DNA of 64,000 nt from an uncultured Bacilli bacterium (lineage in GTDB: Bacteria > Bacillota_I > Bacilli_A > RF39 > UBA660). A model generated the notes under the pieces. The model did no database searches. It worked only from the letters and a program-made list of their open reading frames with translations, and was not told the DNA's origin. The stretch lies in contig CANQQR010000002.1 in NCBI GenBank assembly GCA_947626035.1, positions 37,175 to 101,174 of the forward strand. The letters are read 5' to 3'. Below, piece after piece: positions 6,765 through 57,539 of the stretch. How positions within the stretch are numbered: position 1 is the first letter of the stretch; every line of letters starts with the position of its first letter. The position numbers and the translations under genes are program-made.

Positions 6765-7811
6765 TTATTCTTTGAACTCATATTTATCAAGTCTTTTTTT
6801 GATTTTGTCTAGTTCTTTTTTTCTTTCGTCATAGTGTTTTGTTTTCTCCCAGAATTTTAAATCGTCTTCTATGGCTTTATAACCTATTTTTTTTAGTCCA
6901 GGTGTTAATTTTTTTACTCTCATTAATTTGTCTACTAATACTAGATAAAATCTGGGTCCATCTGTTTTGTTTATATATTCATGAGCTTCTTCATATAGTT
7001 CTCTAAATATTTGCTTTCCAGTTTTGTTTTTATCGTATATATCGTTGTAAACATTTTCTACATTTATTGATACATCACTATCATATAGTTTTGGACCCCA
7101 TCCGTATGAGTAATGAAATTCTACTTTACCTTCTTTTATCATTTTTAATATTAGCTTATCTTCTCTGTCTTTTTTATAGTAGTTTTTCATAATTCTTTCA
7201 TTGTTTTCTTCTGTTTCTTTAATTCCCTCTTTTGTATATTCTTTACCTTTTTTAAGATTAAATGTTTCATAACTTTCTAATAATTTGTTTATAAATATGT
7301 CTGAATTAAGTAGGCTTATAAATGAGCTACTTTCTTTAATAAATTCTTCTTCTTCTGAAATTTCTATTTTAAAGTTGTTTATGTATTTAAATTCTGGACA
7401 GTAGAATGTTTTTGGCGAAATAAATATTCCAAAAATATAAGTGTATATAAGTCCATATTTATCAGGTTTGACTTTTAAATGCTTTTTACTTTCTATTAAT
7501 TCTTCTACGGATTGTTCCATATGCTTATAGCCATATCTTACATTATTTGGACTTCCATAAAATTTTATTAATTCTTGTTTGTCAAATTCTTCTTGAGTAG
7601 TAGGAATAGTCTCGTCTTTTGTTATTTTTGCCCGAAAATATTGAGATTGTGGGTATTTTGGGTCAGTTTTGATGTTTTCATTTTCAAATTTAGTAAGTAT
7701 TAGATATCTTCCATTATATTTTTCAAATTCTTTATTTTCGGTTTCAATTTTAACTGCGAATGTATCGCCTGGTAGCCAATTTTTTTTAAATTTTTTATTT
7801 CCTTTTGTCAT
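6765..7811 (-). CDS. Putative immunity protein cognate to the RHS toxin C-terminal domain
   Basis: 348 aa. Its start overlaps the RHS stop (7808..7811). This is the usual position for an RHS immunity gene. It is a paralog of 3816..4850. Confidence 0.65.
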   Translation of the reverse strand: MTKGNKKFKKNWLPGDTFAVKIETENKEFEKYNGRYLILTKFENENIKTDPKYPQSQYFRAKITKDETIPTTQEEFDKQELIKFYGSPNNVRYGYKHMEQSVEELIESKKHLKVKPDKYGLIYTYIFGIFISPKTFYCPEFKYINNFKIEISEEEEFIKESSSFISLLNSDIFINKLLESYETFNLKKGKEYTKEGIKETEENNERIMKNYYKKDREDKLILKMIKEGKVEFHYSYGWGPKLYDSDVSINVENVYNDIYDKNKTGKQIFRELYEEAHEYINKTDGPRFYLVLVDKLMRVKKLTPGLKKIGYKAIEDDLKFWEKTKHYDERKKELDKIKKRLDKYEFKE

Positions 7812-10800: not shown

Positions 10801-13800
10801 CAGTTATGTATAGTGAGTTACATTCATTTAATGATAGTATTGTAAGATTTGCTGATTCAAAGTCTGCATTTGCTACAAATGTTGCATTAAAGTAAGTCCA
10901 TTCTTCACTACTTTGTTTTAGTCCTGTAAGAGGTGCACATGTTCCAAGTTCCCCATTTACGTGGTATAAGTTCATAAGTACGCTGTTGCCTTGTGATTCG
11001 TGAACATCTTTATATGGTGTAATTCCCTCGTTTTTGTACCAAAATGATACTCTAAATGTTTCTCCTTTTTTGCCAAATAGGTGGAAGTTATAACTTGCTG
11101 TAAATTGTTCTTCAGGATGGCTGTTAATTTTTAATGCTTTTTCTTCTTCATTTATGTTTACTACTTCATAAGTACAATAATTACTATTATTGAATGTCCA
11201 ACCTGTTGTTCTGTTAGTGAAGTCTGAATTTTCTACTAGATTTCTTTCATTTGCTACTTGACCAGTTTCTAATTGCATTTCGTCAATGAAGAAGAATGAT
11301 GCTGGAACTGCATCAAAAACGATTTTTAATTTTGAGTTAGCATGGAAGTAGCCAGTAAATGTGTATTTATCAAACTCTGTTATTTGTCCAAGATTTGGAA
11401 CTGTTCTTATGTAATATTTATCTACTTCTGTTTCTACGTCGTCAAGCACTTCTATTAATCTTATATCTACATAACCGTCATAAGGAAGGTCTGGTCTTAT
11501 GTTAAGAGATAATGTGTAATAATTACTTTCTGTTATGTTATATGTAATATAAGCTTTTCTTGCTATGTGTAGACAATAGTTTTCGTCATTTGGGTATTTG
11601 CTTTGTCGACCATATGTTCCAAATATATCGAAGTTACATTCTTCAAGTGGTCTTTCAAAGTCGCTATTTATAAGAAGATTGTTTGTGTATTTAATGAATG
11701 GTGCATTTTTAGTTGGTTTATTTTTTAAATTTGTATTTTCACTTGTAACATATTCATTATAATAATCTGTTGATTCATAATATGCTTCTTTTATTTTATT
11801 TGTATTTTTAGTGTATATTGTTTTTCCAGTACTATTACCATTAGCATTAAAGGTATAAACTGATTTAATTCCTAAATTGTTTATGATAGTTGTATTTGTG
11901 TCGTTGTAAGTAAATGATAATGACATTCCATCATTATTATTGATGCTTTTTTCAGTTACTTTTTTAATTTTATAAGGAGATGCATCATAATATTCAAAAT
12001 CAAAAGATAAGTTATCAATGTCTGTTATTTTTGTTATTATATTGTTTTCGTTATAAGTAGATTTAGTTATACCATCTAATACTTTGATACTTGTTAATTT
12101 ATTGTTATCTATTGTGATAGTTGATGTTTCATAGTTACTAGTAATGGTTATATTGTTAGTACTATATGTTATATTTATTTCTTCATTGTTTCCGTCTGTG
12201 ATTTTTGATATTAGGCCATTTTCATATGCAATATTTATTTCGCTGTTTTCTGTATTTACAATTTTTGTTAAACGGTATTTATCATTTATGTTTGTATATA
12301 CTTTTTTGTTTCCTATTTTATCTGTTAGAGTATATTCATTGTTTTCATAAACAATGTCCATATTCATACCATCTTCGTCATGGTATTTGTTTTCTTCTTT
12401 TTTGTAAAAGTAATAACTTGCTCCAGTATCACTAGTTAATCTTAAATACTCTAATGTATCTAGTTGTTCTTTTTCTATGGTTTCTTCTAAACTAAATTTC
12501 CAACCTTTGCATATTCCTGATTCAGTGTTCATGATTACATTTTGCGTATTATAAATAACATTTAAAGTTACTGGGAATTTTCCACTAATTGTTTGGTTAA
12601 CATAAAATAAAGATGTTAGGTTTCCTGTTTTATTGTTTACATAACAATCTCCATTACTTAGTGCTACATTCGCATAATCAATATAGTCAAGTAGACCATT
12701 TTGATCTCTATATGTAATTGTTAAGTATGGTCTTCTTGGGGTTTCTTCTACTTCTAAATAGTCATGATATTTTGAATAACATTCATATTCGTTGAAGTTT
12801 TCGTCTATTGTTTCTGTTACCCATTTTAGCATTATTCCATTGTTTTTTGAACCTGCATACCATTTTTTTACAATTGATGTTATATCAAAGGTAGTTGTAT
12901 TTGCTAATACTTGTGTTCTTGATGGGTAAAAATATGTTTCATATTTTTTATTATAGTTTTCACTCATGTTGTTCCAAGTAGCAGTTGTTTCATCCCATTC
13001 AGTTGTTATTTCATGTACTGCGATTTTTCTATCTATTCCGTATAGTGGTCTATTTGGAAATGAGTATAGATTTACTTGTGCATTAACGATGTCAAAACTT
13101 GTACCAATTGTAGGTAGTATGAATTTTAGTAGTGCTCGGTAAATTACATTTTCTTTTGAACAACCGATTATAAGTTTATAATTTCGGTCGAAGTTATTAT
13201 TTGGTTCTGCATTTGATATAAATGTGTCATATACATTTTCGCCGTTTTTAGTAATTGTTGGGTCTATAGTTACTGGGTATATTATTTGTTCTTCCATTAG
13301 CCAGTTTGTATCTAGGTTTAATGTTAAAAGATATGTGTTATTTGGTTCTTTTTCTAAAGTATAGAATATGTTTTTATTTATTTTGTTTTGTTTATCTATC
13401 ATAAATGGTGCTTCTATTGTGAATATTATTTCATTATTATTTGTTGCTTCTATAGTTTTATTTTCTTTTAATGATAGATTTAAATCAGTTTCAATTATAA
13501 ATTCTAATTTTTCTTTTATATCGTTTTTGTTATGTAGTATAATGTTTTCTTTTAATTTTGAAGATATTACTTTATAATTTATATCTATGTTTTTAAATAC
13601 ATCTTTATATGTTATATTTTCTTTATCTTTAATTAAGTTTAAGTTGTTATTGTTTTTGATGTATGTTTTTATGAAGTGATTATCATTAGTAAGTGTTACT
13701 AATTCATTATTATTTTTATTGAATTTTGTTTTAAAACTATTATATTTGTTTTCAAAATATTCGCCTTTATCTACTAATGTGTTATCTATTTCTCTATAAA

Positions 13801-13912
13801 CACCATTATTTAAATAGTGGATGTCATTGTTATATATTTGTGCTGTTATTGTTCCATCTTCATTTAAATAATGTTTTACTTTTCTTTCTCTTAATGTTTT
13901 TAATTCTTTCAT
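7808..13912 (-). CDS. RHS / YD-repeat polymorphic toxin (2034 aa) with a variable C-terminal toxin domain (possibly GIY-YIG/URI-like nuclease)
   Basis: Dozens of YD repeats (YDxxGN..., YTYDxxxRL..., YEYDxxNxL). The RHS-core end motif is present (PFRYRSYYYDEETKLYYLNSRYYNPEWGRFINADKF). A K-rich linker (SSKKKKKKKDKKEE) precedes a ~150-aa C-terminal domain with GIY-YIG-like spacing (VYVLTD...KYYVGRT...NRHRN...E...E..YMIEY...N). No N-terminal signal peptide, transmembrane segment or LXG motif is seen. Confidence 0.9.
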   Translation of the reverse strand: MKELKTLRERKVKHYLNEDGTITAQIYNNDIHYLNNGVYREIDNTLVDKGEYFENKYNSFKTKFNKNNNELVTLTNDNHFIKTYIKNNNNLNLIKDKENITYKDVFKNIDINYKVISSKLKENIILHNKNDIKEKLEFIIETDLNLSLKENKTIEATNNNEIIFTIEAPFMIDKQNKINKNIFYTLEKEPNNTYLLTLNLDTNWLMEEQIIYPVTIDPTITKNGENVYDTFISNAEPNNNFDRNYKLIIGCSKENVIYRALLKFILPTIGTSFDIVNAQVNLYSFPNRPLYGIDRKIAVHEITTEWDETTATWNNMSENYNKKYETYFYPSRTQVLANTTTFDITSIVKKWYAGSKNNGIMLKWVTETIDENFNEYECYSKYHDYLEVEETPRRPYLTITYRDQNGLLDYIDYANVALSNGDCYVNNKTGNLTSLFYVNQTISGKFPVTLNVIYNTQNVIMNTESGICKGWKFSLEETIEKEQLDTLEYLRLTSDTGASYYFYKKEENKYHDEDGMNMDIVYENNEYTLTDKIGNKKVYTNINDKYRLTKIVNTENSEINIAYENGLISKITDGNNEEINITYSTNNITITSNYETSTITIDNNKLTSIKVLDGITKSTYNENNIITKITDIDNLSFDFEYYDASPYKIKKVTEKSINNNDGMSLSFTYNDTNTTIINNLGIKSVYTFNANGNSTGKTIYTKNTNKIKEAYYESTDYYNEYVTSENTNLKNKPTKNAPFIKYTNNLLINSDFERPLEECNFDIFGTYGRQSKYPNDENYCLHIARKAYITYNITESNYYTLSLNIRPDLPYDGYVDIRLIEVLDDVETEVDKYYIRTVPNLGQITEFDKYTFTGYFHANSKLKIVFDAVPASFFFIDEMQLETGQVANERNLVENSDFTNRTTGWTFNNSNYCTYEVVNINEEEKALKINSHPEEQFTASYNFHLFGKKGETFRVSFWYKNEGITPYKDVHESQGNSVLMNLYHVNGELGTCAPLTGLKQSSEEWTYFNATFVANADFESANLTILSLNECNSLYITDIMVIKDPRTYIFEYDKNGNVIKTTGLNNNSSEFNYDDKNQLISEFNPKGNSFKYEYDNKVPNRILSGITDTGITNQIKYDSFGNPTNTIIKNTLKDNEIIENHNYNIRSKGTNEYLYFDPKENIFKFAPGDCNKAAFKLEKEEIDNETYYKLKIGSKAIKENNNNITLTKNSDYSLYILNPNENGSYSFITKSDVFKNLSNQNGILTITDKDVKLYNNQFYIEDPELKEYIESKSFYTEDGKFITSVVDTLGKETKYDINTKNGLTNSITNAKGDTTYLEYNDREELIKVTNNNKSIEYTYDLDSLTNIKSGTKNYKIEYDEFLNTKEIKINNNTLISYEYEENNGNLKSKTYGNGFKESYTYDSLNRISTLTKNDNIYNFLYDNFGNVAKIINDKETHIYNYDVARRLQKYISNNFDIKYTYDINNNIQNKKYSKDNIEFQNITYEYDKDDNLVKVIIDENEINYTYDNLGRLTNTNINNNLKIDYEYMSNGNKTSLVINKITIDNDTYKYHYDDLYNVTRIYINEEIANEYEYDTINELITAKDYQNNLLYKYVYDKEGNITEKKTYNLNNLLLKTDTFEYNDSNWEDLLTKYNDKEITYDTIGNPLTIGNDTLTWEKGKKLSSYNDYKYTYDLSGIRTSKEVDGIITNYKLENNLIILEEKPNIMLNYIYNSNEDLIGFKYNSRETYYYKKNSQNDIIGIYNSNYELIATYTYDPYGNILSIKDNLNNEITDKNNIAIINPFRYRSYYYDEETKLYYLNSRYYNPEWGRFINADKFFGHEEVVTTYNIFTYCTNNPINHKDITGEFIMEAIATEQAIENAIKVVATIACALVALSHLNNDSIAYSIDIPDFNNNSSKKKKKKKDKKEETNNLVYVLTDCTEDQWEKNSKLCGKYYVGRTNNKIATKNRHRNNPYRAHLNLVPVEENLTYEQARTREEWYMIEYCTLDVTRKNKTKNQIHGLNPNRPDYDILMDKFTTGQNYYDVSKYLERCNE

Positions 13913-30537: not shown

Positions 30538-32637
30538 TTAAGTGTATCTTTTGTATGTTTTTATTTTGTAGTTATTTTTTATGGTTATTTCTATTGTGCC
30601 ACTGTATGCAGTGTTTAAGACTTGGCTATAACTTGAAAGACGGTTTACTACTTCTTTGTGTGGATGATTAAAGCTGTTGTTTTCTTTTGACATTATTATG
30701 CTTATTTTAGGTTTTATTTTGTCTATAAAATTACTACTTGAACTTGTTTTGCTTCCGTGGTGTGCGACTTTTAGTATGTCTACTTCTTCTAGGTTATAGT
30801 TTTTTAGTATGTCACTTTCTACTTTAGTGCTTATGTCTGCTGTAAACAAGAGTTTAGTTTTTTCTATTTTTAAAAGTAATACTATTCCGTTATCGTTTTC
30901 GTTATTATATATTTTGTTATTTAGTGATTTAATAGTGATGTTATCTATTTTAAAGTTTTCTTTAGTTATTGTTTGAGCGTTTTTTATGGAGGACTCTAGT
31001 GAGTTTATTTCGCCTTTATTTATTATTATGTTTTTGATTTTGAAGTTTTTTATAAGTGTGCTTGCTTCGCCTAGGTGGTCGTAGTCTCCGTGGGTTAGTA
31101 TTAGGTAGTCTATTTTTGTTATTCCTAAATTTATAAATAGCGGGATTAGTGTGTCTTTTCCTAGGGAATATTCATTATTAGTTAGTGCCCATTTTTCTTT
31201 TTTGTAAGGCTTTATACCACCTGTATCTATAAGTATTACTTTTTTTAAGTGAGGCGTTACTATTAAGCTTGAGTCGCCTTGGCCTACATCTATAAAGTAT
31301 ACTTTTGTTTCGTTATTTAGGTATGGTTTTATTTTTAGTGTTATTAGTAAGATTATTAGTAGTATTATTGCTTTTTTGTTTTTAGTTTTTATTATTATGT
31401 ATAAGAGTATGTAATAAATAAGTACACATATTTTGTTTATGTGAGGAAACATGATTATTAGTTTTATGTTTGTTAGTAATAGTGAAAGGTTTTCTAGTAT
31501 ACTTGTTGATATATTAAATAGTACTCTAAAGGGTGGGAAGATAAATGATATTATTGATAAAGGAAATACACAAAATGTTACTAGTGGAACAAATATTAAG
31601 TTTAGAAATATACTTATTAGGTTTATTTTGTTAAAGTAATATAAAGATAAAATTAGGCTTCCAAGGAATGCTACTATTGATACTTTTAGTAGTGATATTA
31701 TGTAGTTTTTACTACTAATTAAGTCACTACTTATTACTAGGAAATATGTTGTTATAAATGAAAGAAGAAAGCTTATGTCATATATTATGAATGGGTTTAG
31801 GATGGTAAGTATTATTAGTACTAGGTATAGTATGTTTTCTGTTTTTATATAGAAATAAAATACTTTGTTTATTCCAAGTAAAAAGAATAGTAAGCTTGCT
31901 CTTAGTATTGAGGGGCTAAAGCCAGTTATGAATGAGAATATGAGAAGAAATATGAATATTATTATGTAAGTTAGTAGTTCGTTTGTTTTAAGTTTTTTTA
32001 GTATTTTTAACAAAATCATACTAAATATAGATACATGGAGACCAGATAAAGCAAATAAGTGACTTATTCCATTTGTTCTATAGCTTTCTAGTACGTTTTC
32101 TTTTATTTTATAGTTTTTTCCTAGTATGAATGTGTAGTAGTAACTATTTTTGTTATTTATTTTTTTATATAAGTAGTTTTTTAGTTTATAGAGTATGTTT
32201 GTTTTTTTGTTTATTAGTTTTATGTTTTCGATGTTTAGGGTGTAATATATTTTTTTATAGTAAAGATATTTTTTGTAGTTAAAGCCATAGGGAATTGTGT
32301 TGTTATTTGGTTTTTGTAATGAGCCTTTTATTTCATATGTTCCGCCTATTATTAAGTTTTTTTCGTAATATTCTTTTTCTTTTTGTGTTTTTAGGTAGTA
32401 AGTGGCATTTAGTTTTTCTTTACATGATAAGTTTAGTGAGAGAACATTTCCGTCTATTTCATAGTCTTCTATTTTGCATTTAAATAGTGTGGTTGTTTCT
32501 TCGTATTTGCTTTTAAATTTTATACAATTTGTGAATATTAATGCAAGGGTTATTATAATTAGGACTATGTATTTATATAATTTATCTTGTAGTAATATTT
32601 TCCTTAATTTTAGCATATACACTTTCGCCGATACCAC
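30538..32637 (-). CDS. comEC: DNA internalization competence protein ComEC/Rec2
   Basis: 699 aa. A polytopic membrane domain is followed by a C-terminal metallo-beta-lactamase domain (LTHGDYDHLGE, VAHHGS). Confidence 0.85.
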   Translation of the reverse strand: MVSAKVYMLKLRKILLQDKLYKYIVLIIITLALIFTNCIKFKSKYEETTTLFKCKIEDYEIDGNVLSLNLSCKEKLNATYYLKTQKEKEYYEKNLIIGGTYEIKGSLQKPNNNTIPYGFNYKKYLYYKKIYYTLNIENIKLINKKTNILYKLKNYLYKKINNKNSYYYTFILGKNYKIKENVLESYRTNGISHLFALSGLHVSIFSMILLKILKKLKTNELLTYIIIFIFLLIFSFITGFSPSILRASLLFFLLGINKVFYFYIKTENILYLVLIILTILNPFIIYDISFLLSFITTYFLVISSDLISSKNYIISLLKVSIVAFLGSLILSLYYFNKINLISIFLNLIFVPLVTFCVFPLSIISFIFPPFRVLFNISTSILENLSLLLTNIKLIIMFPHINKICVLIYYILLYIIIKTKNKKAIILLIILLITLKIKPYLNNETKVYFIDVGQGDSSLIVTPHLKKVILIDTGGIKPYKKEKWALTNNEYSLGKDTLIPLFINLGITKIDYLILTHGDYDHLGEASTLIKNFKIKNIIINKGEINSLESSIKNAQTITKENFKIDNITIKSLNNKIYNNENDNGIVLLLKIEKTKLLFTADISTKVESDILKNYNLEEVDILKVAHHGSKTSSSSNFIDKIKPKISIIMSKENNSFNHPHKEVVNRLSSYSQVLNTAYSGTIEITIKNNYKIKTYKRYT

Positions 32638-33337
32638 TTACATTTTTTATGTCTTCTATTTCTTCAAATGGACCATTTTCTTCTCTATATTTTATTATGC
32701 TTTCTGCTTTTTCTTTTCCTATACCTTCTAGGGTCATTAGTTCTTCTAGTGAGGCTTCATTAATATTCACAACTGTGTTCAATTCTTCTGCTAATTCTTT
32801 GTTTTCTTTGTTAGATGCTTCTACGTCATTAGTTACTAGATCTTCATTTTTTATGCATGCATCATTTTGTGCTGTACATATTATTTCAGTTTTTTGGTTT
32901 AGTATTTCTTCTATTTCACTAGTACTATTTATGATTATTACGTTTTCGTCTTTTAGTATTTGGCTTAGGTTTATGTATTTTGTGTATGCATCTGGTAGTA
33001 ACCCTCCTGCTTTGTTAATTGCGTCTATTACTCTAGAACCTTTTTCTAGTTCATATACACCTGGGTTTACTATGCTTCCCTTTATGTCTATTTTTATTGT
33101 TTCTTCATTAGTGTTTAGTTCTACATTAGTAGGTCCAGTTAGGTTTTCAGTTGTTTCTTTGCTGTTTTCTGAAGACTTTTTTTCTACTTCGGCTAGGAAT
33201 GTTTCGTCAGATGCGTCTTTGTTTGCATTTATTATTATTAGAGAAGAAAATATTACAAGTAGAAGACCCATGTATAGTGTTATTCTTTTTTTATGTAGTT
33301 CAAAGTAGTTTTTTATTTTATCAGTCACTTTATTCAC
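32582..33337 (-). CDS. comEA: Competence protein ComEA (helix-hairpin-helix DNA-binding)
   Basis: N-terminal membrane anchor. The C-terminus is a tandem HhH (NINEASLEELMTLEGIGKEKAESIIKYREENGPF...VSGIGESVYAKIKE). It overlaps the comEC start. No comEB lies between them. Confidence 0.8.
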   Translation of the reverse strand: MNKVTDKIKNYFELHKKRITLYMGLLLVIFSSLIIINANKDASDETFLAEVEKKSSENSKETTENLTGPTNVELNTNEETIKIDIKGSIVNPGVYELEKGSRVIDAINKAGGLLPDAYTKYINLSQILKDENVIIINSTSEIEEILNQKTEIICTAQNDACIKNEDLVTNDVEASNKENKELAEELNTVVNINEASLEELMTLEGIGKEKAESIIKYREENGPFEEIEDIKNVSGIGESVYAKIKENITTR

Positions 33338-39470: not shown

Positions 39471-40598
39471 ATGAATGTTATAGGTATTGTATCAGAATAT
39501 AATCCTTTTCATAATGGACATGTTTATCAAATTAATAAGGTTAAAGAGATGTACCCTGATTCTATTATTGTTGTTGCAATGAGTGGGAATTATACTGAAA
39601 GAGGAGAATTTAGTGTTATTGATAAGTGGGACAAGACTAGTGTTGTTTTGAGTCATGGTGTTGATGTTGTTTTAGAGATACCTTTTCCCTATTCTAATCA
39701 GTCTGCTGATACTTTTAGTTATGCTGCAATTAAAATGCTTAGTGAGTTTCATATTGATACTTTGGTTTTTGGAAGTGAGAGTGATGATTTGGAAACTCTT
39801 GTTAATACTGCTAGTGTACAGATTAATAATCCTTCTTTTGATAATCTTGTTAAAAAGTATATGAAGCAAAAGAATAATTACCCTACTAGTTTGAGTAAGG
39901 CAATTTATGATTTAACTAATAATAAGGTTACTAGTAGTAATGATTTACTTGCGGTTTCTTATATTAAGGAAATTATTAAGAATAAGTATAATATTAAGTT
40001 AGAGCCGATTAAGAGAAGTAATTCTTTTAAGACACTTACTGGAAGTGGTAATATTATGAGTGCTTATGGGATTAGAGAGTTACTTAAGGAAAAGAAAGAT
40101 ATAAGTAAGTATGTTCCTAATGATACTTTAAATTATATTCGTTATATTGATTATGATAATGTTTTTAAGTTTTTAAAGTATAAGATTATTTCTAGTAAAG
40201 ATTTTTTAAGTTCGTATCATTTGATTACTGAGGGGATTGATAATAGAATTTATGAAGCTGCTTTAAAGAGTAATAGTATGGATGAGTTTATTAGTAATAT
40301 TAAGAATAAGAGAGTTACTGAGAATAGAATTAAGAGAATGCTTATGAATATTTTAGTTGGGTTTAGTAAAAGAGAAGCTTCTTCTTTTAAGTCTTTAGAG
40401 TATATACGTGTACTTGGTATGTCTAAAGCTGGAAGAAATTATTATAAGTCTATTAAAAATAGTACTAGTTTACCTATTGTTACTAAGTTAGAAAGAGGTG
40501 TTACTTCTAGTATTAGTTATAAGAGCAGTTATATTTATTATTTTGTTAATGATTTTGATAATGTAGATGAAAAAAATAAGCATGTTATTTTGAAGTAA
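39471..40598 (+). CDS. tmcAL: tRNA(Met) cytidine acetate ligase TmcAL (YlbM/UPF0348 nucleotidyltransferase)
   Basis: N-terminal IGIVSEYNPFHNGHVYQI (HxGH-type motif characteristic of YlbM/TmcAL). 375 aa. Confidence 0.75.
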   Translation: MNVIGIVSEYNPFHNGHVYQINKVKEMYPDSIIVVAMSGNYTERGEFSVIDKWDKTSVVLSHGVDVVLEIPFPYSNQSADTFSYAAIKMLSEFHIDTLVFGSESDDLETLVNTASVQINNPSFDNLVKKYMKQKNNYPTSLSKAIYDLTNNKVTSSNDLLAVSYIKEIIKNKYNIKLEPIKRSNSFKTLTGSGNIMSAYGIRELLKEKKDISKYVPNDTLNYIRYIDYDNVFKFLKYKIISSKDFLSSYHLITEGIDNRIYEAALKSNSMDEFISNIKNKRVTENRIKRMLMNILVGFSKREASSFKSLEYIRVLGMSKAGRNYYKSIKNSTSLPIVTKLERGVTSSISYKSSYIYYFVNDFDNVDEKNKHVILK

Positions 40599-48624: not shown

Positions 48625-48659
48625 TTTTGTGAAAAAATAGTTCTTTTTGGGAACTATTT
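48625..48659 (-). terminator. Intrinsic terminator after the thyA-fusion operon (9-bp stem aaatagttc/gaactattt, U6 tail)
   Basis: Inverted repeat at 48635-48643 and 48651-48659. The minus-strand tail is uuuuuucaca. Confidence 0.7.
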
Positions 48660-48668
48660 TTGGTTATT

Positions 48669-50093
48669 TTATTCTATTTTTAGGCCCTTTTTTAGTTCTT
48701 TGTGACCACCTATTCCAAATCTTACTTTTTCTTCTTCTTTTGGCATGATTATGTGGACGTGTAAGCGCTTAAGTGTGGCGCCTGAAAAGGATGGGTCGCC
48801 AAATCTCATGGAGATTGCTCCTCCGTTTATTTGATATTCTTCTATTAAGTTTAGAGATATTTCTTTTAGTTCAGCCCACATTTGTTCTGTTATGTCTTTT
48901 ATGTCATATATTCCGTATTTTGATATTATTAAGAATTGAAGTTCAGCACCAAGGTAAGGAAATTTGTTTTTTGTTACATACCAGTAATTAGTTACATATA
49001 GTATTTCTTGGTCTATGTGTTCTATTCCTAATGGGTCTATTCCCTCGGCTTCTTTTTTTATCATTATATCAAGTTGTTCTTGTTTTCTTGCGTTTGGCGG
49101 GTAGATGTATTTGTAGCCGTTCATGTCTACTAATGTTTCTACTTCTGTTTTTTCTATTAAAGGGCGCGTGATTATTCCATGTTTTTTTGCTAATGCGTGA
49201 GAGCGTTTGCTCCAGTTTCTTTCTGGGTGGTCTTCTAGATAGTATATTTCTTTTACACCTTTTTCAATTAGTACTTTCATGCATTTGTCACATGGGAAAA
49301 GTGTTGTGTATATAGGTGTGTCTAATACTTGTACTTCGCCTAGTTTTTTTAATAAATTCATTTCAGCATGTTCTGTTAATGCGTAGTAGAGTTCTGTACG
49401 GTTGTTTATGTCATATGCTGGCAAGTTTAAGTCAGTGTGGTTTGTGCCAAAGTGCCATTCGCCATTATAGAAGCATGCAGCAGATACAGGGCAGACTACG
49501 TCAGTTGAGTCTCTTAAGTGGTCTATTAGCATTGTTATGATTTCGTCCATGTCAGAAGTATAGCCTATTCGTTTTTTTAAGTCTTCTATAGCAATACTTA
49601 CTAATTCATTTATTTCTTTTACTTGTTTACCTTTACTAGATATTACTATTTTTCTTATTTTGTCAGATGTTGAGCTTTCTGATTGTCTTGGTAGTATTTT
49701 TATTTCAGTGCAATATTCTTTTAAGGCTTCTATTTGTTCTTTTTTGTAGGTTTCTTTTATTATGATTAGTACATCAGGTTTTACTGATTTTATTAGGTGC
49801 CACTTAGGTTCGTTTACTTCTTTTATTACAACTTCTGAAGCGATGCCTGGTAGTAGTTTTATAAATTCATATCTTTCTTCTTCTGGGATTATTGGTCTAC
49901 CGGATCCTTTTCTTTTTTTTATTTTTTCGTCACTGTCCATAGCTACGATTAGAAAGTCACATTGTTCTTTTGCTTTTAGTAGATATCTTAAGTGGCCTAG
50001 GTGGAATAAGTCCCAAGAGCCTTGAACTATTCCTATTTTTTTACCTTGTTTTCTTGCTTCTTCTACTCTTTTTAAAAAACTTTCGTCAATCAT
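48669..50093 (-). CDS. Three-domain fusion protein: cytidylyltransferase-like (RfaE-II/TagD-type HxGH nucleotidyltransferase) + dCMP/cytidine deaminase (zinc-binding) + C-terminal degenerate HIT-like domain
   Basis: N-terminus: GIVQGSWDLFHLGHLRYL...KGSGRPIIPEEER (CTP_transf_like pattern). Middle: HAEMNLL...PCDKC (CDA-fold zinc ligands H-A-E / PCxxC). C-terminus: LHVHIIMP (partial histidine-triad-like). 474 aa. It starts immediately after the thyA stop. Confidence 0.7.
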   Translation of the reverse strand: MIDESFLKRVEEARKQGKKIGIVQGSWDLFHLGHLRYLLKAKEQCDFLIVAMDSDEKIKKRKGSGRPIIPEEERYEFIKLLPGIASEVVIKEVNEPKWHLIKSVKPDVLIIIKETYKKEQIEALKEYCTEIKILPRQSESSTSDKIRKIVISSKGKQVKEINELVSIAIEDLKKRIGYTSDMDEIITMLIDHLRDSTDVVCPVSAACFYNGEWHFGTNHTDLNLPAYDINNRTELYYALTEHAEMNLLKKLGEVQVLDTPIYTTLFPCDKCMKVLIEKGVKEIYYLEDHPERNWSKRSHALAKKHGIITRPLIEKTEVETLVDMNGYKYIYPPNARKQEQLDIMIKKEAEGIDPLGIEHIDQEILYVTNYWYVTKNKFPYLGAELQFLIISKYGIYDIKDITEQMWAELKEISLNLIEEYQINGGAISMRFGDPSFSGATLKRLHVHIIMPKEEEKVRFGIGGHKELKKGLKIE

Positions 50094-51011
50094 TTATATA
50101 CCTACTGGAATTCCTGTTATTTTGGAATTTGGATGATAGTCTGTAAGGACAAAGTCATCTTTTCTGTAGTCTTTTATGTTTGTGTGTTTGTTTACTAATT
50201 TTAAAGTAGGAAAAGCTTCTGTTTTTCTTTCTAATATTTCTTCTACCCATGGAAGTTGGTTATAGTATAGGTGTGCATCTGAAATCATATGTATAAATTC
50301 ATATGGTTCTAGTTGTAATGTTTCAGCCATTGCTAGTAAAAGGGCTGAGTATTGTGCCCAGTTGCTTACACAGCCAACTAATACGTCACAACTTCTTTGG
50401 AACATTACCATGCTTAGTTTGTTATTTAGTACTCTAAAATGAATCCATCCGTGACAAGGACATACTACTACTTTTTGTGTGTTTTCACTATTTCTTATTG
50501 TATATTCAGGAATCCAAGGCGATATGAAGTGAGTTTTTAATTCTGGTCTTTCTTTTATTTGTTTTACGATTTGTTCAAATTGATCAAATGAAGTGCCGTC
50601 TGGTGTTGGGAAAGACATGAATGCTGCTCCGTATGAACCAGGACCTAAGTCGCCAGTAGCTAGTCCTCTTTTTGCACATTTAGCAGGTGTTACCCATGAT
50701 TTCCACCATTTGCATCCGAATTTTTCTAATTCTTCTTGTGTTCTTGCACCATTTATAAATGCAAATAGTTCGCCGACTGCTGCTTTCCAAAAGCCAGATA
50801 TGTCTCGTTCTGTTATAAATGGTACACCATTTTCTAGTATGTTAAATCTCATTACTGGTGCTCCCATTAAGTCAATTGTATCAATTTCGTTACCATTTGA
50901 GTCTACCATTGGACTTTTTGTTCTTATTCCTTTTTCTAATATTTCTCTTATTAAGTTTTTGTACTGACCGTCAGGCGTACGTTCGATAAATGGTCTATAG
51001 TCCCATTCCAT
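50094..51011 (-). CDS. thyA: Thymidylate synthase (ThyA family)
   Basis: Active-site VCPCHGWIHF (PCH), GDLGPGSYGAAF, DVLVGCVSNWAQYSALL (Asn retained, so dUMP-type specificity) and SDAHLYYNQ. The probable true start is MEWDY at 51011 with a GGAGGT ribosome-binding site 8 nt upstream. The ORF-track start at 51092 is likely an in-frame upstream extension. Confidence 0.85.
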   Translation of the reverse strand: MEWDYRPFIERTPDGQYKNLIREILEKGIRTKSPMVDSNGNEIDTIDLMGAPVMRFNILENGVPFITERDISGFWKAAVGELFAFINGARTQEELEKFGCKWWKSWVTPAKCAKRGLATGDLGPGSYGAAFMSFPTPDGTSFDQFEQIVKQIKERPELKTHFISPWIPEYTIRNSENTQKVVVCPCHGWIHFRVLNNKLSMVMFQRSCDVLVGCVSNWAQYSALLLAMAETLQLEPYEFIHMISDAHLYYNQLPWVEEILERKTEAFPTLKLVNKHTNIKDYRKDDFVLTDYHPNSKITGIPVGI

Positions 51012-51120
51012 ATTTATTACCTCCAAAACTAAAATGCCCCATATTCTTTTAACACTAGTATTTAGTTTAACAAATGAGTCGTGAAAAATCAATTCTAATT
51101 AGTGCCTCTTTTAAATTATT

Positions 51121-53818: not shown

Positions 53819-55486
53819 TTAGAATTTTTCTACTGTTTCTATTCCTAGTATTTTTAATGCACTTGTTGTAACTTTTAAAATACAATTTAGTAGTCTTAAT
53901 CTTGAAGACTTTAAGATATTATCTTTCTCATTTGTTATGTTTATTTCTTCATATAATTTTGAAAATAGTACTGCGATGTTATAAATATATTTTGTTAGGT
54001 GTGATGGCTCGCTAGATTCTAATAATTCATTAATTACAGATGGGTACAAAGATAGTTCTTTAATTATTTGATTTTCTATATCACTATTAAATTTTATTTC
54101 TTCATATGTTTCTTGTTTATTATTTTTTAATATAGAGTTAATTCTTGCAATGCTATAGAGAATGTATATACCTGATTCCCCAGTGAAGCTTGTAGCACTT
54201 TGTAAATTAAAATTAACTATTTTATTTTTTGATACGTTTAACATAGTAAATTTAATACAAGCGTTCATTAGTTTATTTAAATTACTTTCTGATATTTCAC
54301 TATTTCTGTTTTTAAATTCTTTTATTAATGTTTCTTTTACTTTTTTCATGAAGTCTGTTACTAATACTACTGTCCCATTAGATGTAGACATTTTGTCGCC
54401 GTTTAGTAGTACATAGGAATAGCATATTAGCTTAGGTGCTTTGTAGCCTAAAATATCTAATACTGCTGTTATTTCTTTCATGTATACTTCTTGATCTTCT
54501 CCTAAAACGATAAAATTATTTTTTGGGTTTAATTTGAGTTTGTAGATTGTGTATGCAATATCTCTTATTGGGTATAATGATGTTTTATTTGAACGCGTTA
54601 GGATTAGTATTGGTGTTTTTGTTGGAATGTCATAGTCTTTTAAATCAACATATAATCTGTTTAGTTCGTCTTCGTGTAATTTGCCTGTTTTTTCTAATTT
54701 GTTTAAAATGTCTTCTAGGTAGTTATTGTAAACAAAGTCTGATTCATGAGTAAATACATCAAAATGAATGTTTAGTTCGTTTAATATTTTTAATTGTCCA
54801 TCAACACATTTATCAGTTATTTTTTTAAATTTATTAATCATTTCTGTGTTACCGTTTTCTACTTCTTTTAGGTAATCAAATGCTTTTTGATTTAGTTGTT
54901 CATTAGTGTCTGCTTCTTTGCTAATTTTTACATATGTGTCTAGGACTTCAGAAAATTCATCACTTTTTAATCCATATTTTTCTATGCCAATTACAAGTAA
55001 TGCTATTTTTTTGCCAATATCATTTATAAAATAATGTCTTGTTACATCATACCCAACAAATGCATATAAATTACTCATAAAATCTCCTATTAGACTGTTT
55101 CTACATCTTCCAATGTGAGGTTCAGCATTAGGATTTATTGAGGTATGTTCAATTAGTAATGATTCCCCTTTACCTTGATTATTTGATCCATAGTTTTCAT
55201 TTCTTTCTATTTCTTTGATTATGTTAGGACTATAATTTTGATAATTTATGTAGAAATTTATATAAGGGCCTACTACTTTTATATTTGAAAAATTATTTTT
55301 ATCGTCTATGAATTTTTCTTTAATTAAGTTAGCAATTTCATTTGGATTTTGATATTTTTCATTTCTTAGGTTAGCACATTGTATGCTATAGTCTCCCATT
55401 TCATGTTTTGGTGGTATTTCAATTTTAATTTTTGATTCTTCAATATTAATAATTTCAAGTATTTTTTTAGTTATATATTTTTTCAT
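53819..55486 (-). CDS. argS: Arginine--tRNA ligase
   Basis: Class I HIGH motif (PNAEPHIGRCRNSLIGD), KMSKS-like DKMSTSNG and a C-terminal DALR anticodon-binding domain. 555 aa. Confidence 0.9.
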   Translation of the reverse strand: MKKYITKKILEIINIEESKIKIEIPPKHEMGDYSIQCANLRNEKYQNPNEIANLIKEKFIDDKNNFSNIKVVGPYINFYINYQNYSPNIIKEIERNENYGSNNQGKGESLLIEHTSINPNAEPHIGRCRNSLIGDFMSNLYAFVGYDVTRHYFINDIGKKIALLVIGIEKYGLKSDEFSEVLDTYVKISKEADTNEQLNQKAFDYLKEVENGNTEMINKFKKITDKCVDGQLKILNELNIHFDVFTHESDFVYNNYLEDILNKLEKTGKLHEDELNRLYVDLKDYDIPTKTPILILTRSNKTSLYPIRDIAYTIYKLKLNPKNNFIVLGEDQEVYMKEITAVLDILGYKAPKLICYSYVLLNGDKMSTSNGTVVLVTDFMKKVKETLIKEFKNRNSEISESNLNKLMNACIKFTMLNVSKNKIVNFNLQSATSFTGESGIYILYSIARINSILKNNKQETYEEIKFNSDIENQIIKELSLYPSVINELLESSEPSHLTKYIYNIAVLFSKLYEEINITNEKDNILKSSRLRLLNCILKVTTSALKILGIETVEKF

Positions 55487-55727: not shown

Positions 55728-57539
55728 TTATTCTTGTAAAGTTTCACTAGTTTTTATATAAATAGAATCTTCATTTATTTCTACCCAGTCATTATCATTT
55801 AACACTTTGGTTGCTTTTTTGCAGCCTACTATGCAAGGAATTTTTAATTCTCTTGCTATTATGCTCGCGTGGCAAGTTATTCCACCTTCATCAGTTATGA
55901 TTGCTGAACATTTTTTTATTAGTGATACAAATTTTGGAGTTGTCATTGGAGTTACAATAATATCTTTTTCTTTAAATTTTTTAAAGTCTTTTTCACTATA
56001 AATTTTGCATACTTTACCTAATGTATTACCAGGATATGCTATTTGTCCTTTTAAAATATTAGTGTCTTCTTCTTCGTCTTTTTTTATTATTATATTATGT
56101 GTTGATTTCCATTTGTTATAGTCGTTTGTCACATATAATTTATCAAATAATATAAAGCCTTTTTTGCGTTTTTCTAGTTCTTCTATTTTTTGATATTTAT
56201 TTTCTAATATTTCTTCTATTTTTAAGTAATTAATATATTTTTTATATTTTTCTGGTATTTTCTCTTTTAATTTTTCTATAAAATATTCACATGATTCATG
56301 ACATAAAGTATCATATTTATATCTAAAATCAAGAAACATTTTTTTAACTCTTTCCGTTATTTTGTCGTAGTGTCCTGCTAGTTGTCCTAAGCTTGTAAAT
56401 GGGTATAGGTTTATGATGGATTTATAAAATTTATTAAAATCTATATTAAGTTTGTTTTTGATAGCATTTTGTAAATATAGAATATCTTCTTTGATAGTAG
56501 TATTATAGTACTCGTTTATTTTATCAAAATTTTCTTCTATGAATGAGTACATTAAATATGGGTCTTCTTCTAAATCATAGTTGTTATAATATATATCAAT
56601 GTTTTGATTTTTACTATTGTATATAAATAATGGTTTAAAGTAGTATAAGTTATTAGTTAAGTTGCTAATTCCTTCATATTCCCCCTTATAATATATTTCT
56701 AGTTCTATGATTTTTAGAGGTCTAGTTAAAGATAAACAATATGATTTCGGAATGCTAGTTATTGAAGTTATTGCTCTTGCTTGTAATATGTAAATTTCAT
56801 TGTTTTTTAATGCATATTCTACATCAACGTATGTTTTATAAAGTTTTTCTATGTTTAAGATTATTTCTTCTAAATTTTTTATAATTTTTTTATCAATATC
56901 TATTGAACCAATATTTAAGTCAATTTTTTTAGTTTGTCTTCTTACTAAAAGTTTTGTAGGTGTTTTTGTTCCAGACACTAGTTGTTCTCCTAGTCCACTA
57001 ACTATTTCTATTACTGAGTAATTTTTTACATCATTTGTAGGATCAATAGAAAATGCAACGCCAGCATAATCAGGGTTTATCATTTTTTGAATTATTACAC
57101 ACATGCCATATAGGTTTTGCTCTTTGGAATAAGATATGACATTATTTTCGTATAAAGAACACCAACACAATTTGATTTTTTCTTCTAATTCAGTTAAGTC
57201 TACGTTTAAATAAGAATTATATTGACCTGCAAAAGATTTTTTTATACCATCTTCATTTAATGCAGAGGAACGTACAGATACTAAATTACAATTTAATTTT
57301 TTATATTCATTCATAATCTTATTTTTTAGTTCATTATTAAATTTAGAATTTATTACTAATTCTTTTATTAATGAATATTTGTTTTGATTTGCTAGTTCTT
57401 TTATTTTGTCATATATAGAGTTATATTTTAAAAATGTTATATATTCATTTTCTTCTATTACAAAAAAGTCAGGAACATTAAAATTGTTTTCTTTTAACTT
57501 AATTAATGAATTTGCTTTACCACCTAAATTTTTATTCAT
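55728..57539 (-). CDS. PEP-utilising enzyme family protein: N-terminal PPDK/PEP-synthase ATP-grasp nucleotide-binding domain + C-terminal swivelling phospho-histidine domain; lacks a PEP/pyruvate-binding TIM-barrel domain
   Basis: N-terminus: GGKANSL..L....VP.FFVI...VSVRSSALNEDG...SFAGQ (PPDK_N pattern). C-terminus: GNTLGKVCKI.....DIIVTPMTTP.....IKKCSAIITDEGGITCHASIIARELKIPCIVG (PEP-utilizers mobile domain with catalytic His). 603 aa. Confidence 0.7.
   Translation of the reverse strand: MNKNLGGKANSLIKLKENNFNVPDFFVIEENEYITFLKYNSIYDKIKELANQNKYSLIKELVINSKFNNELKNKIMNEYKKLNCNLVSVRSSALNEDGIKKSFAGQYNSYLNVDLTELEEKIKLCWCSLYENNVISYSKEQNLYGMCVIIQKMINPDYAGVAFSIDPTNDVKNYSVIEIVSGLGEQLVSGTKTPTKLLVRRQTKKIDLNIGSIDIDKKIIKNLEEIILNIEKLYKTYVDVEYALKNNEIYILQARAITSITSIPKSYCLSLTRPLKIIELEIYYKGEYEGISNLTNNLYYFKPLFIYNSKNQNIDIYYNNYDLEEDPYLMYSFIEENFDKINEYYNTTIKEDILYLQNAIKNKLNIDFNKFYKSIINLYPFTSLGQLAGHYDKITERVKKMFLDFRYKYDTLCHESCEYFIEKLKEKIPEKYKKYINYLKIEEILENKYQKIEELEKRKKGFILFDKLYVTNDYNKWKSTHNIIIKKDEEEDTNILKGQIAYPGNTLGKVCKIYSEKDFKKFKEKDIIVTPMTTPKFVSLIKKCSAIITDEGGITCHASIIARELKIPCIVGCKKATKVLNDNDWVEINEDSIYIKTSETLQE

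Follow-up and report, generated by a model that had tools for sequence, protein, structure and literature searches.

A thymidylate synthase operon of gut Bacilli encoding a fused nucleotidyltransferase, dCMP-deaminase-fold and HIT-like protein

Synthesis of deoxythymidine monophosphate (dTMP) is essential, well studied and a drug target, and the deoxyuridine monophosphate (dUMP) used by thymidylate synthase (TS; ThyA) is usually accounted for by Dcd and Dut, by the deaminases ComEB or DCTD, or by ribonucleotide reductase followed by Dut. This textbook step may have an unknown variant. In a 64,000-nucleotide stretch of DNA from an uncultured Bacilli bacterium (contig CANQQR010000002.1; “the window” hereafter, meaning the whole stretch), thyA is directly followed by an open reading frame (ORF) for a 474-amino-acid (aa) protein in which a nucleotidyltransferase (NT), a dCMP-deaminase-fold zinc deaminase and a HIT-like module are joined. 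The question is what such a protein does beside a thymidylate synthase. It is a natural fusion of three functionally linked proteins and forms a two-gene thymidylate operon with thyA. Very probably, as judged from sequence and gene context, the fusion supplies ThyA with its pyrimidine substrate; that it does so as a dUMP-supply module, combining deamination of a deoxycytidine nucleotide with cleavage at the alpha-phosphate, is the answer to which we lean, with considerably less confidence. Furthermore, comparison of homologues points to a widespread, uncharacterised thymidylate module whose scope goes beyond one odd fusion: a conserved set of NT, dCMP-deaminase-like and HIT proteins occurs across many Patescibacteria (the candidate phyla radiation, CPR) with thyA, folA and tmk, and is fused in a clade of Bacilli from rabbit, mouse and ruminant guts.

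The thyA-fusion operon and its distribution

The operon consists of the following elements.

50094-51011, minus strand: thyA, 305 aa, with ATG at 51011 and stop at 50094-50096 (Pfam, TIGR03284 and E. coli residue mapping)
51020-51024, minus strand: GGAGG ribosome-binding site, 8 nt 5′ of the thyA ATG (read from the sequence)
48669-50093, minus strand: tri-domain ORF (NT-deaminase-HIT), 474 aa, with ATG at 50093 and stop at 48669-48671
48633-48661, minus strand: terminator-like hairpin with an 11-bp stem and a U run, directly 3′ of the fusion stop and ahead of the polC promoter region

As the original prediction had it, the stop codon of thyA abuts the start codon of the fusion gene: the junction, read from the minus strand, is ATA TAA ATG. 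An alternative TTG at 51092 gives a longer thyA ORF and is an unlikely start. Direct RNA folding of the hairpin gives a dG of -8.7 kcal/mol and a z of -8.2 against shuffled sequences; a generic promoter and terminator scan of this AT-rich region yielded nothing useful and missed the hairpin, whose stem is AT-rich. Because the two ORFs abut, a GGAGG precedes thyA and a hairpin follows the fusion, the pair looks like a self-contained bicistronic unit. It had been placed downstream of polC. Read along the transcribed direction, however, the two genes come first, then the hairpin and then polC, whose start is at 48544; their position is upstream. The window (28% G+C) carries polC, dnaE, polA, argS, thrS, ruvAB, relA, secDF and comEA-comEC, and is therefore a housekeeping chromosomal region of a Firmicute. 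No comEB is present between comEA (32582-33337) and comEC (30538-32637), which are adjacent and overlapping, in line with the earlier statement that this comE operon lacks comEB; no folA is present within the 64 kb.

The same architecture is found in at least 120 protein clusters of 470-500 aa among 5.8 billion proteins searched, with 52-67% identity over the full length, and in 60 loci in a scan of one genome per GTDB species. Most of the 60 loci are from gut metagenome-assembled genomes (MAGs) of rabbit, ruminant and mouse, under the names uncultured Bacilli, Bacillales, Tenericutes or Erysipelotrichaceae. A large set from mouse gut bears the label “Candidatus Saccharibacteria” (L025-L063, e.g., L037 6001-7412), which looks doubtful. 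The MAGs of this set have 44-48% G+C, their protein is about 62% identical to that of the window, and their neighbouring genes include AraC-type regulators. In this subclade the protein is naturally split into an NT-deaminase of 317 aa and a HIT-like protein of 153 aa, encoded by ORFs that overlap by a few codons, so the HIT module can be regarded as an autonomous protein. The database search proposed in the original prediction thus recovered the fusion itself, and a frameshift or assembly artefact is rejected: the ORF is continuous in more than 120 clusters and 60 genomes, and the sole split form is clade-wide and in register. The first impression of an unusual architecture also holds. An exhaustive HMMER search of 1.84 billion representatives clustered at 50% identity returned one full-length tri-domain representative, besides split and fragmentary forms; therefore, the fusion is confined to one tight clade. 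Neither a curated family in NCBIfam or Pfam nor a description in full-text literature searching was found for the tri-domain protein or for the CPR cluster, and the members are named “adenylyltransferase/cytidyltransferase family protein” at NCBI.

Linkage to thyA is obligatory in this clade: each of the 63 related loci (60 species genomes) has a codirectional thyA directly upstream, with ThyA proteins 57-84% identical. The wider neighbours vary, such as polC in the window, scpAB in L001 and ftsW/murG in L002, and folA is directly downstream of the fusion gene in four distinct loci (L002, L009, L012 and L022). A rabbit gut MAG contig, CANPXI010000004.1 (L004), is syntenic with the window (polC 89%, polA 83% and fusion 73% identical, with an upstream 532-aa protein 80% identical to its counterpart), and the two organisms probably belong to a common genus-level lineage. 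A phage or mobile origin is rejected: among 50,697 phage records and in IMG/VR, neither a tri-domain nor an NT-deaminase relative was recovered.

Three domains with intact catalytic motifs

Three domains had been proposed from motifs. The NT and the deaminase are identified by Pfam, and the HIT domain by a family profile and Foldseek, though its Pfam scores are sub-threshold. An AlphaFold model of the fusion, built with 30 homologues, has a mean pLDDT of 87 and a pTM of 0.41; the domains are therefore modelled with confidence and their mutual arrangement is not. Foldseek comparison of the whole model with the PDB gives dCMP deaminases, TagD/HldC and Hint-type HIT proteins, all with probability 1.0. 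The invariance of the signature residues in an alignment of 30 full-length homologues indicates that all three active sites are under selection.

The N-terminal part contains the following.

49644-50042, minus strand: HldC/RfaE-II/TagD-type NT domain, aa 18-150 (Pfam, NCBIfam, Foldseek)
49992-50003, minus strand: NT motif HLGH, aa 31-34, invariant in 30 aligned homologues
49653-49691, minus strand: NT domain motif PRQSESSTSDKIR

Pfam CTP_transf_like matches aa 23-139 (E 2e-16; 60.8 bits against a cut-off of 21). The nearest NCBIfam model is TIGR02199, the equivalog of RfaE domain II/HldC, with 93.5 bits, which is under its cut-off of 181.5. In Foldseek, TagD (1coz and 2b7l; TM 0.81-0.86) and also HldC (5xf2) are matched. 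The HxGH signature of HldC is present, its second, ISTT-like motif is present as SSTS, and H31, G33, H34, R136, Q137, S141, T142 and R147 are invariant. With HldC/RfaE-II and TagD the domain shares, besides the fold, the HxGH, a SD..K..KG..RP segment and the STS of the second motif; it differs from them in belonging to a distinct clade with the pattern PRQ/EPQ...STS, which travels with deaminase, HIT and ThyA genes. Its closest relatives are the NTs of the CPR clusters described below, likewise under the TIGR02199 cut-off. Among about 140 best non-fusion representatives matched by the fusion profile, 61 have 45% identity or more with a CPR-module NT, and the fusion NT is therefore assigned to the CPR-module clade and not to true HldC.

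The middle part contains the following.

49146-49556, minus strand: dCMP-deaminase-fold zinc deaminase domain, aa 180-316 (Pfam, PDB profile, Foldseek)
49356-49370, minus strand: deaminase motif HAEMN (HAE at aa 242-244), with HAE invariant in 30 aligned homologues
49281-49295, minus strand: deaminase motif PCDKC, aa 267-271, invariant in 30 aligned homologues
49197-49235, minus strand: family-specific deaminase motif EDHPERNWSKRSH
49437-49451, minus strand: FGTNH, the segment at the place of the canonical allosteric motif G(Y/W)N(A/G)

Pfam dCMP_cyt_deam_1 matches aa 225-286 (E 2.4e-9), and human DCTD is matched among PDB sequences with an E-value of 8.5e-8. Foldseek matches are 2w4l, 1vq2, 7fh4 and 2hvw (human, T4, PBCV-1 bi-DCD and S. 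mutans enzymes) with E-values of 1e-8 to 1e-6. H242, A243, E244, P267, C268 and C271 are invariant. Thus, the domain shares the zinc fold, HxE and PCxxC with DCTD and ComEB, its best matches being human DCTD, T4 Cd, the S. mutans enzyme and PBCV-1 bi-DCD, and it would likewise act ahead of ThyA, the comE operon of this region being without comEB. It differs from these enzymes in the added NT and HIT domains, and the ComEB equivalog of NCBIfam gives it 33 bits against a cut-off of 219.45. Two regulatory or structural features of dCMP deaminases are not conserved either. The allosteric site has been defined by G(Y/W)N(A/G) (PMC12088426); the family reads F-G-x-N-Q/H, in which Gly and Asn alone are conserved. 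A second, structural zinc site lies in an insert between strand 2 and helix 2 of dCMP deaminases (PMC3239186); no conserved Cys or His is present in DLNLPAYDINNRTELYYALTE in the 30-homologue alignment.

These two losses leave room for a different view of the fusion, in which an ordinary dCMP deaminase carries NT and HIT domains as non-catalytic nucleotide sensors (e.g., for dCTP or dTTP) in place of the DCTD-type allosteric site. The degenerate F-G-x-N-Q/H and the absence of the second-zinc insert both fit such an arrangement, and conservation of the NT and HIT motifs does not discriminate, as catalytic motifs also serve binding. However, HxGH with RQ..STS, and the nucleophile His of HIT, are invariant across distant lineages, and together with the gene arrangements of the next section this makes a purely regulatory role of the two domains unlikely.

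Weak matches of the deaminase core to NF041025 (37.8 bits) and to the PADLOC dCTPase model (33.7 bits over 48 residues) would suggest anti-phage defence by a dCTP-depleting enzyme of the AvcD/dCTP deaminase type. This is scarcely credible: the scores are far under the cut-offs (400 bits), and the shared zinc-deaminase core alone matches. In addition, a P-loop kinase-like domain is absent, the N-terminal domain being an HxGH NT, and throughout the clade the gene adjoins thyA in housekeeping surroundings that are not mobile. A reading as a riboflavin or FAD enzyme, with a RibD-like deaminase and a RibL-like NT, was also rejected: RibD matches are much weaker, TIGR00326 having an E-value of 0.037 and RibG ranking below dCMP deaminases in Foldseek, and the ThyA/DHFR/Tmk context points to pyrimidine deoxynucleotides.

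A variant of the fusion with a tandem deaminase pair, P0002 (652 aa, from a JGI metagenome), has an intact second copy and an inactivated first copy, where HAE is changed to YAE and PCxxC to PGDRS. The pair resembles the inactive and active deaminases of CDADC1, the vertebrate dCTP deaminase. Indeed, CDADC1, the enzymes of phage XP-12/mSCD-B5 and PBCV-1 bi-DCD exemplify that the dCMP-deaminase fold can take substrates at the dCTP level (bioRxiv 10.1101/2024.12.05.627091; PMC12088426). None of them has an NT or HIT domain, and the conserved basic patch of the fusion, WSKRSH, is at most a candidate site for binding polyphosphate.

The C-terminal part contains the following.

48672-49121, minus strand: C-terminal HIT-like module, aa 325-474 (family profile against the PDB, Foldseek)
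49074-49100, minus strand: PPNARKQEQ, motif of the extra conserved N-terminal helix (P.NAR..EQ)
48795-48824, minus strand: HIT motif GGAISMRFGD, part of the GG..RFGD core
48741-48770, minus strand: HIT motif KRLHVHIIMP, with R443, H445 (nucleophile position) and H447

For the window protein, Pfam DcpS_C (E 1e-4; 23.1 bits against 24) and HIT (E 4e-3; 18.2 bits against 21.5) are both sub-threshold over aa 360-456. Several relatives have Pfam support: P0084 is listed with HIT in precomputed annotation, P0284 scores 31.8 bits for HIT against 21.5, and a HIT-like neighbour at L067 scores 30.7 bits for DcpS_C against a cut-off of 24. Searched against the PDB, a profile of the C-terminal module matches Fhit (E 7e-5). 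A separate AlphaFold model of the C-terminal 156 residues has a pLDDT of 82 and a pTM of 0.79, and in Foldseek it matches first M. tuberculosis Rv2613c, an Ap4A phosphorylase, and then Hint1/2 and E. coli Hint, with probability 1.0 and a TM (target) of 0.6-0.7.

The domain had been described as degenerate, lacking the third His of the triad. This was an error of register: in the Fhit alignment, R443-L-H445-V-H447 corresponds to H94-V-H96-V-H98, so that the first His is replaced by Arg and both the nucleophile and the third His are kept. R443, H445, H447 and P451 are invariant. The central His is invariant across the Bacilli and the CPR and other distant relatives; R or H occupies the first position and H or Q the third, the CPR relatives reading HLHxH and, in one case, HxHxQ. 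With the HIT superfamily (Fhit, Hint, Rv2613c; the GalT/Apa branch) the module shares the fold, the nucleophile His and the core GG..RFGD...H.H..P, to which it adds the conserved N-terminal helix. Far from being degenerate, the HIT domain probably has catalytic activity.

The same enzymes as separate genes in Patescibacteria

Distant relatives were recovered by searching with a profile of the HIT-like module, and the trio is found there as separate clustered genes. Six of six contexts (L068, L070, L072, L073, L074/75 and L076/77) are of Patescibacteria type, located beside rplK-nusG-secE, and have separate genes for an NT (180-200 aa), a HIT-like protein, ThyA, a dCMP-deaminase-family protein (280-300 aa) and DHFR. 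In L068 the HIT-like protein is a DHFR-HIT fusion, a form represented by P0364 and P0373 among the distant relatives, and in L070 Tmk is also in the cluster. Similarity to the Bacilli proteins is as follows.

CPR NT and fusion NT domain: 32-42% identity, E down to 5e-34
CPR HIT and fusion HIT domain: 24-42% identity
CPR ThyA and fusion-linked ThyA: 34-46% identity
CPR deaminase and fusion deaminase domain: 25-31% identity, core only, over 50-90 aa

A metagenome scan with a CPR-only HIT alignment gave 80 loci, which were annotated with hidden Markov models made from the module sequences; the 27 loci of at least 8 kb were counted. All 27 have NT and deaminase genes, 26 ThyA, 23 DHFR and 15 Tmk, and thyA, NT, deaminase and HIT are all four present in 26. 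A coupling of ThyA to DHFR may be indicated by the 23 of 27 CPR loci and the four Bacilli loci with adjacent folA; the window has no folA. In the usual layout, tmk and folA are on one strand, NT is followed by HIT, and the deaminase gene by thyA; NT and HIT are often paired as an operon of their own. Gene pairing as a clue to the order of steps was abandoned, since NT-deaminase with HIT-ThyA and NT-HIT with deaminase-ThyA both occur. These clusters, with the linkage to thyA in all 63 related loci, support the original suggestion of a novel fused dTMP-synthesis module.

There are other architectures. P0220 is an NT joined to a deaminase, on a contig of small ORFs (L066), and P0193 (L067) has an unknown domain between NT and deaminase and the HIT-like neighbour mentioned above. 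In P0309 (561 aa), an ATP-cone, an NT, a NUDIX domain and a dCMP deaminase are joined, so that HIT is swapped for Nudix. The P0309 gene overlaps the start of that for a 486-aa protein with MtrA, thymidylate synthase and PterinBD-DUF4346 domains (L064 846-3975; L065). The latter is possibly a pterin-linked TS, from an archaeon-like organism, and the combination of DUF4346 with TS was not found in the literature. HIT and Nudix are interchangeable in this setting; both kinds of enzyme release nucleoside monophosphate (NMP) from pyrophosphate-linked nucleotides. On these Rosetta-stone and domain-displacement arguments, the NT and the deaminase, with HIT or Nudix as the enzyme that cleaves nucleotide pyrophosphates, are read as a functional unit tied to thymidylate synthesis.

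The ATP-cone of P0309 shows that regulatory domains are recruited to such proteins, in keeping with the sensor view of the fusion. The other arrangements speak against that view: free-standing NT and HIT genes, often in an NT-HIT operon, would be odd for regulatory domains of a deaminase, HIT is replaced in P0309 by Nudix, another catalytic pyrophosphatase fold, and HIT is fused to DHFR in other genomes.

Several features of the relatives were observed alongside. Module-type NT domains are also fused to an N-terminal region of about 300 aa, without a Pfam match, in proteins of about 480 aa (P0187, P0189, P0200 and similar). In P0200 an HDxGK-like motif in this region recalls HD phosphohydrolases; should this be genuine, the module NT would have a partner from a third hydrolase superfamily. 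CPR deaminases and some NT-deaminase fusions have an extra domain of about 150 aa before the core (P0193, P0208; L073 2089-2982) with the motif PV/AL-H-x-G-Y-x-x-F, for which no Pfam match was found and the PDB match, to anthranilate phosphoribosyltransferase, is non-significant (E 0.075). An N-terminal C-P-F-C motif is invariant among CPR HIT-like proteins and lost from the Bacilli fusion, which has D-P-L there. This motif may be a zinc site comparable to the one in HIT transferases of the GalT branch.

The partner ThyA and a proposed route to dUMP

The ThyA of the window is divergent (about 127 bits to the best solved TS in the PDB) and still a clear thymidylate synthase, with 206 bits for Pfam Thymidylat_synt and 154.8 bits for TIGR03284 against a cut-off of 108.35. 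Mapped on E. coli ThyA (reference sequence identical to PDB 1aob), it has Cys186 (C146), Asn217 (N177), Arg206 (R166), Glu81 (E58) and Tyr127 (Y94). All 61 family ThyAs keep E58, W80, W83, Y94, C146, H147, Q165, R166, S167, D169, N177 and H207 and end in P-V-[GA]-[IV]; Y209 is kept in 59 and is Phe in the other two. The Asn of VSNWAQY, taken earlier as a sign of dUMP specificity, does align with N177, which is invariant in 61 of 61 Bacilli-family and 46 of 46 CPR-module sequences.

A link to hypermodified bases had also been raised. In that case the ThyA homologue would make 5-hydroxymethyl or other modified pyrimidines, and the fusion would process modified nucleotides. The divergence of the window ThyA could be taken that way, and ThyA homologues beside dCMP deaminases on phage contigs are associated with modified cytosines (70% versus 6%; bioRxiv 10.1101/2024.12.05.627091). 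But it is Asp that has been assigned to dCMP-modifying enzymes at the position of the invariant Asn177 (bioRxiv 10.1101/2024.12.05.627091), the TS C-terminus is retained, and linkage to folA (recycling of dihydrofolate is needed only after reductive methylation) and to tmk points the other way. With a housekeeping context (polC, polA and argS; rplK-nusG-secE in CPR) and no relatives in the phage and IMG/VR collections searched, a base-modification pathway is very improbable.

The 5′-phosphate pocket is where these ThyAs are atypical. R21, R126′, R127′ and R166 are listed among invariant TS residues, and R127′G in a Vibrio TS, active with a raised Km, was described as the first natural loss of a phosphate-binding Arg (PMC6005164). 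In the Bacilli family R166 alone of the four is kept: all 61 sequences have Lys for R126′ and either Thr or Ala for R127′ (Lys159-Thr160 in the window), and there is no equivalent of R21, in a loop that is longer by four residues and where the alignment is less certain. CPR ThyAs of an insert type (L068, L072, L073 and L076) have Thr for R127′ and Gln or Ile for R21. In otherwise canonical CPR ThyAs, R126′, R127′, R166 and N177 are invariant, and all 43 sequences have Pro at R21, where the alignment has no gap (GDPQG versus NDRTG). Such systematic loss of R21 in module-linked ThyAs (in the window and at L068, L070, L072-L076 and L078-L157), as read from these alignments, is unusual and extends the single natural exception reported so far, R127′G of Vibrio. 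Possibly, family-specific basic residues compensate (an invariant Arg in an N-terminal extension; the insert KC.KRGL). Or a relaxed affinity may be tolerable through substrate channeling, or the substrate may have a different 5′ group.

How could dUMP be supplied? Enzymes of the dCMP-deaminase fold deaminate deoxycytidine nucleotides. HIT enzymes act on the alpha-phosphate by way of a nucleotidyl-His intermediate and release NMP, or a nucleoside diphosphate (NDP) by phosphorolysis, and HxGH transferases use a nucleoside triphosphate (NTP) and release pyrophosphate. In the dUMP-supply module proposed here, the input would most plausibly be dCTP. The deaminase, with H242, C268 and C271 as zinc ligands and E244 as proton shuttle, would convert cytosine to uracil. 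H445 of HIT would be the covalent nucleotidyl acceptor, by which the alpha-phosphate bond of a deoxycytidine or deoxyuridine nucleotide (dCTP, dUTP or an NDP-X) is cut and the 5′-monophosphate released. Either cleavage would come first (dCTP to dCMP to dUMP) or deamination (dCTP to dUTP to dUMP, as in DCD-DUT). The NT, the least explained part of the fusion, would bind or consume an NTP, making an NDP-X for HIT or conferring triphosphate specificity or gating on the deaminase; alternatively, it may be regulatory. ThyA would then methylate dUMP, with DHFR and Tmk, clustered in relatives, completing the cycle.

This proposal draws on the thyA linkage, the separate-gene clusters, the natural split, the DHFR-HIT fusions, the Nudix swap, the absence of comEB between comEA and comEC, and on precedents. 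The dCTP pyrophosphatase DCTPP1 supplies dCMP for thymidylate synthesis (PMC7162842), and phage dCMP deaminases co-localise with TS and PRA-PH NTP pyrophosphatases (bioRxiv 10.1101/2024.12.05.627091). The DCTPP1-DCTD-TYMS set, the T4 set and the phage PRA-PH/MazG sets may have a logic in common with the module, namely, bringing a triphosphate to the 5′-monophosphate, deaminating and methylating it. They differ from it in the all-alpha fold of MazG/DCTPP1 or gp56, where the module has HIT (Nudix in P0309), and in having no counterpart of the module NT. Gene for gene, the CPR cluster (HIT, deaminase, ThyA, DHFR, Tmk) is presumably parallel to gp56-Cd-Td-Frd-gp1 of T4. DCD-DUT, or Dcd with Dut, is a possible analogy in that dCTP would be carried to dUMP in one polypeptide while free dUTP is avoided; there is no homology, and Pfam finds no dUTPase-fold or dCTP-deaminase domain in the fusion, whose chemistry is predicted to be zinc-dependent. 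The joining of an HxGH nucleotidyltransferase to a nucleotide pyrophosphatase is known from NadM-Nudix fusions (NMN adenylyltransferase/Nudix hydrolase), which belong to another NT clade and have neither a deaminase nor linkage to ThyA. What is familiar here is the passage from deaminase to ThyA; NT and HIT as obligatory partners, and ThyAs without Arg21, are not.

Several observations weigh against this scheme. The NT has no obvious place in a dCTP to dCMP to dUMP scheme, for which one pyrophosphatase would suffice. Between the fusion deaminase and its CPR counterparts similarity is weak (25-31% over 50-90 aa), and membership in its family leaves the preferred phosphorylation state unfixed, since members act on dCTP or 5mdCTP (bioRxiv 10.1101/2024.12.05.627091; PMC12088426). 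The best structural match of the HIT domain is the phosphorylase Rv2613c, so that the product could be an NDP and not an NMP. Finally, the linked ThyAs are without the phosphate-binding Arg21, and their true substrate may not be plain dUMP.

An alternative is a pathway through a conjugate, in which the NT joins the deoxycytidine nucleotide to a phosphorylated carrier to give dCDP-X, the deaminase and possibly ThyA act on the conjugate, and HIT releases dUMP or dTMP, or dTDP by phosphorolysis; release only at the end would mean that free dUMP or dUTP never accumulates. The trio with an Arg21-less ThyA would then be an unrecognised thymidylate pathway, common among Patescibacteria and found also in one clade of gut Bacilli, via dCDP-X, dUDP-X, possibly dTDP-X, or an enzyme-His-linked nucleotide, which we regard as a long shot. 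Such a pathway would explain the constant company of NT and HIT or Nudix with the deaminase and the remodelled 5′-phosphate pocket of ThyA, since the loss of Arg21 in module-linked ThyAs, and of Arg127′ in the insert type, fits an altered 5′ group. Every domain would have a catalytic job matching the N-to-C order of NT, deaminase and HIT. NDP-sugars are products of HldC-type NTs and are cleaved or transferred by HIT enzymes of the GalT/Apa branch; the CPR HIT relatives carry the C-P-F-C motif, a possible GalT-like zinc site, and match an Ap4A phosphorylase best. On the other hand, the pathway is entirely inferential, with no candidate X known, and tmk in the cluster together with R166, S167 and all other dUMP contacts kept speaks for plain dUMP and dTMP. 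Substitution of R127′ is tolerated with TS activity retained (PMC6005164), and the family-specific basic residues named above could compensate. A conjugate pathway therefore appears improbable.

If the dUMP-supply reading is true, the module would be a non-homologous route to dUMP from deoxycytidine nucleotides, and functions would be given to two widespread generic families, now annotated as “adenylyltransferase/cytidyltransferase family protein” and “HIT domain protein”. The fusion, one ORF of soluble size with its ThyA, is a good experimental entry point.

Other genes of the window were observed besides these. The arginyl-tRNA synthetase gene argS (53819-55486) is two genes upstream of thyA, and an arginyl-tRNA synthetase gene directly adjoins the thymidylate cluster in three CPR loci (L068, L072 and L076); this could be coincidence or the remnant of a shared or transferred block. 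A 603-aa protein (55728-57539) has PPDK_N and PEP-utilizers mobile domains, and Pfam matches neither the stretch between the two nor a catalytic domain at the C-terminus. An ORF of 2034 aa lies on the minus strand at 7808-13912, and a HIGH_NTase1-family nucleotidyltransferase of 375 aa is encoded on the plus strand at 39471-40598.

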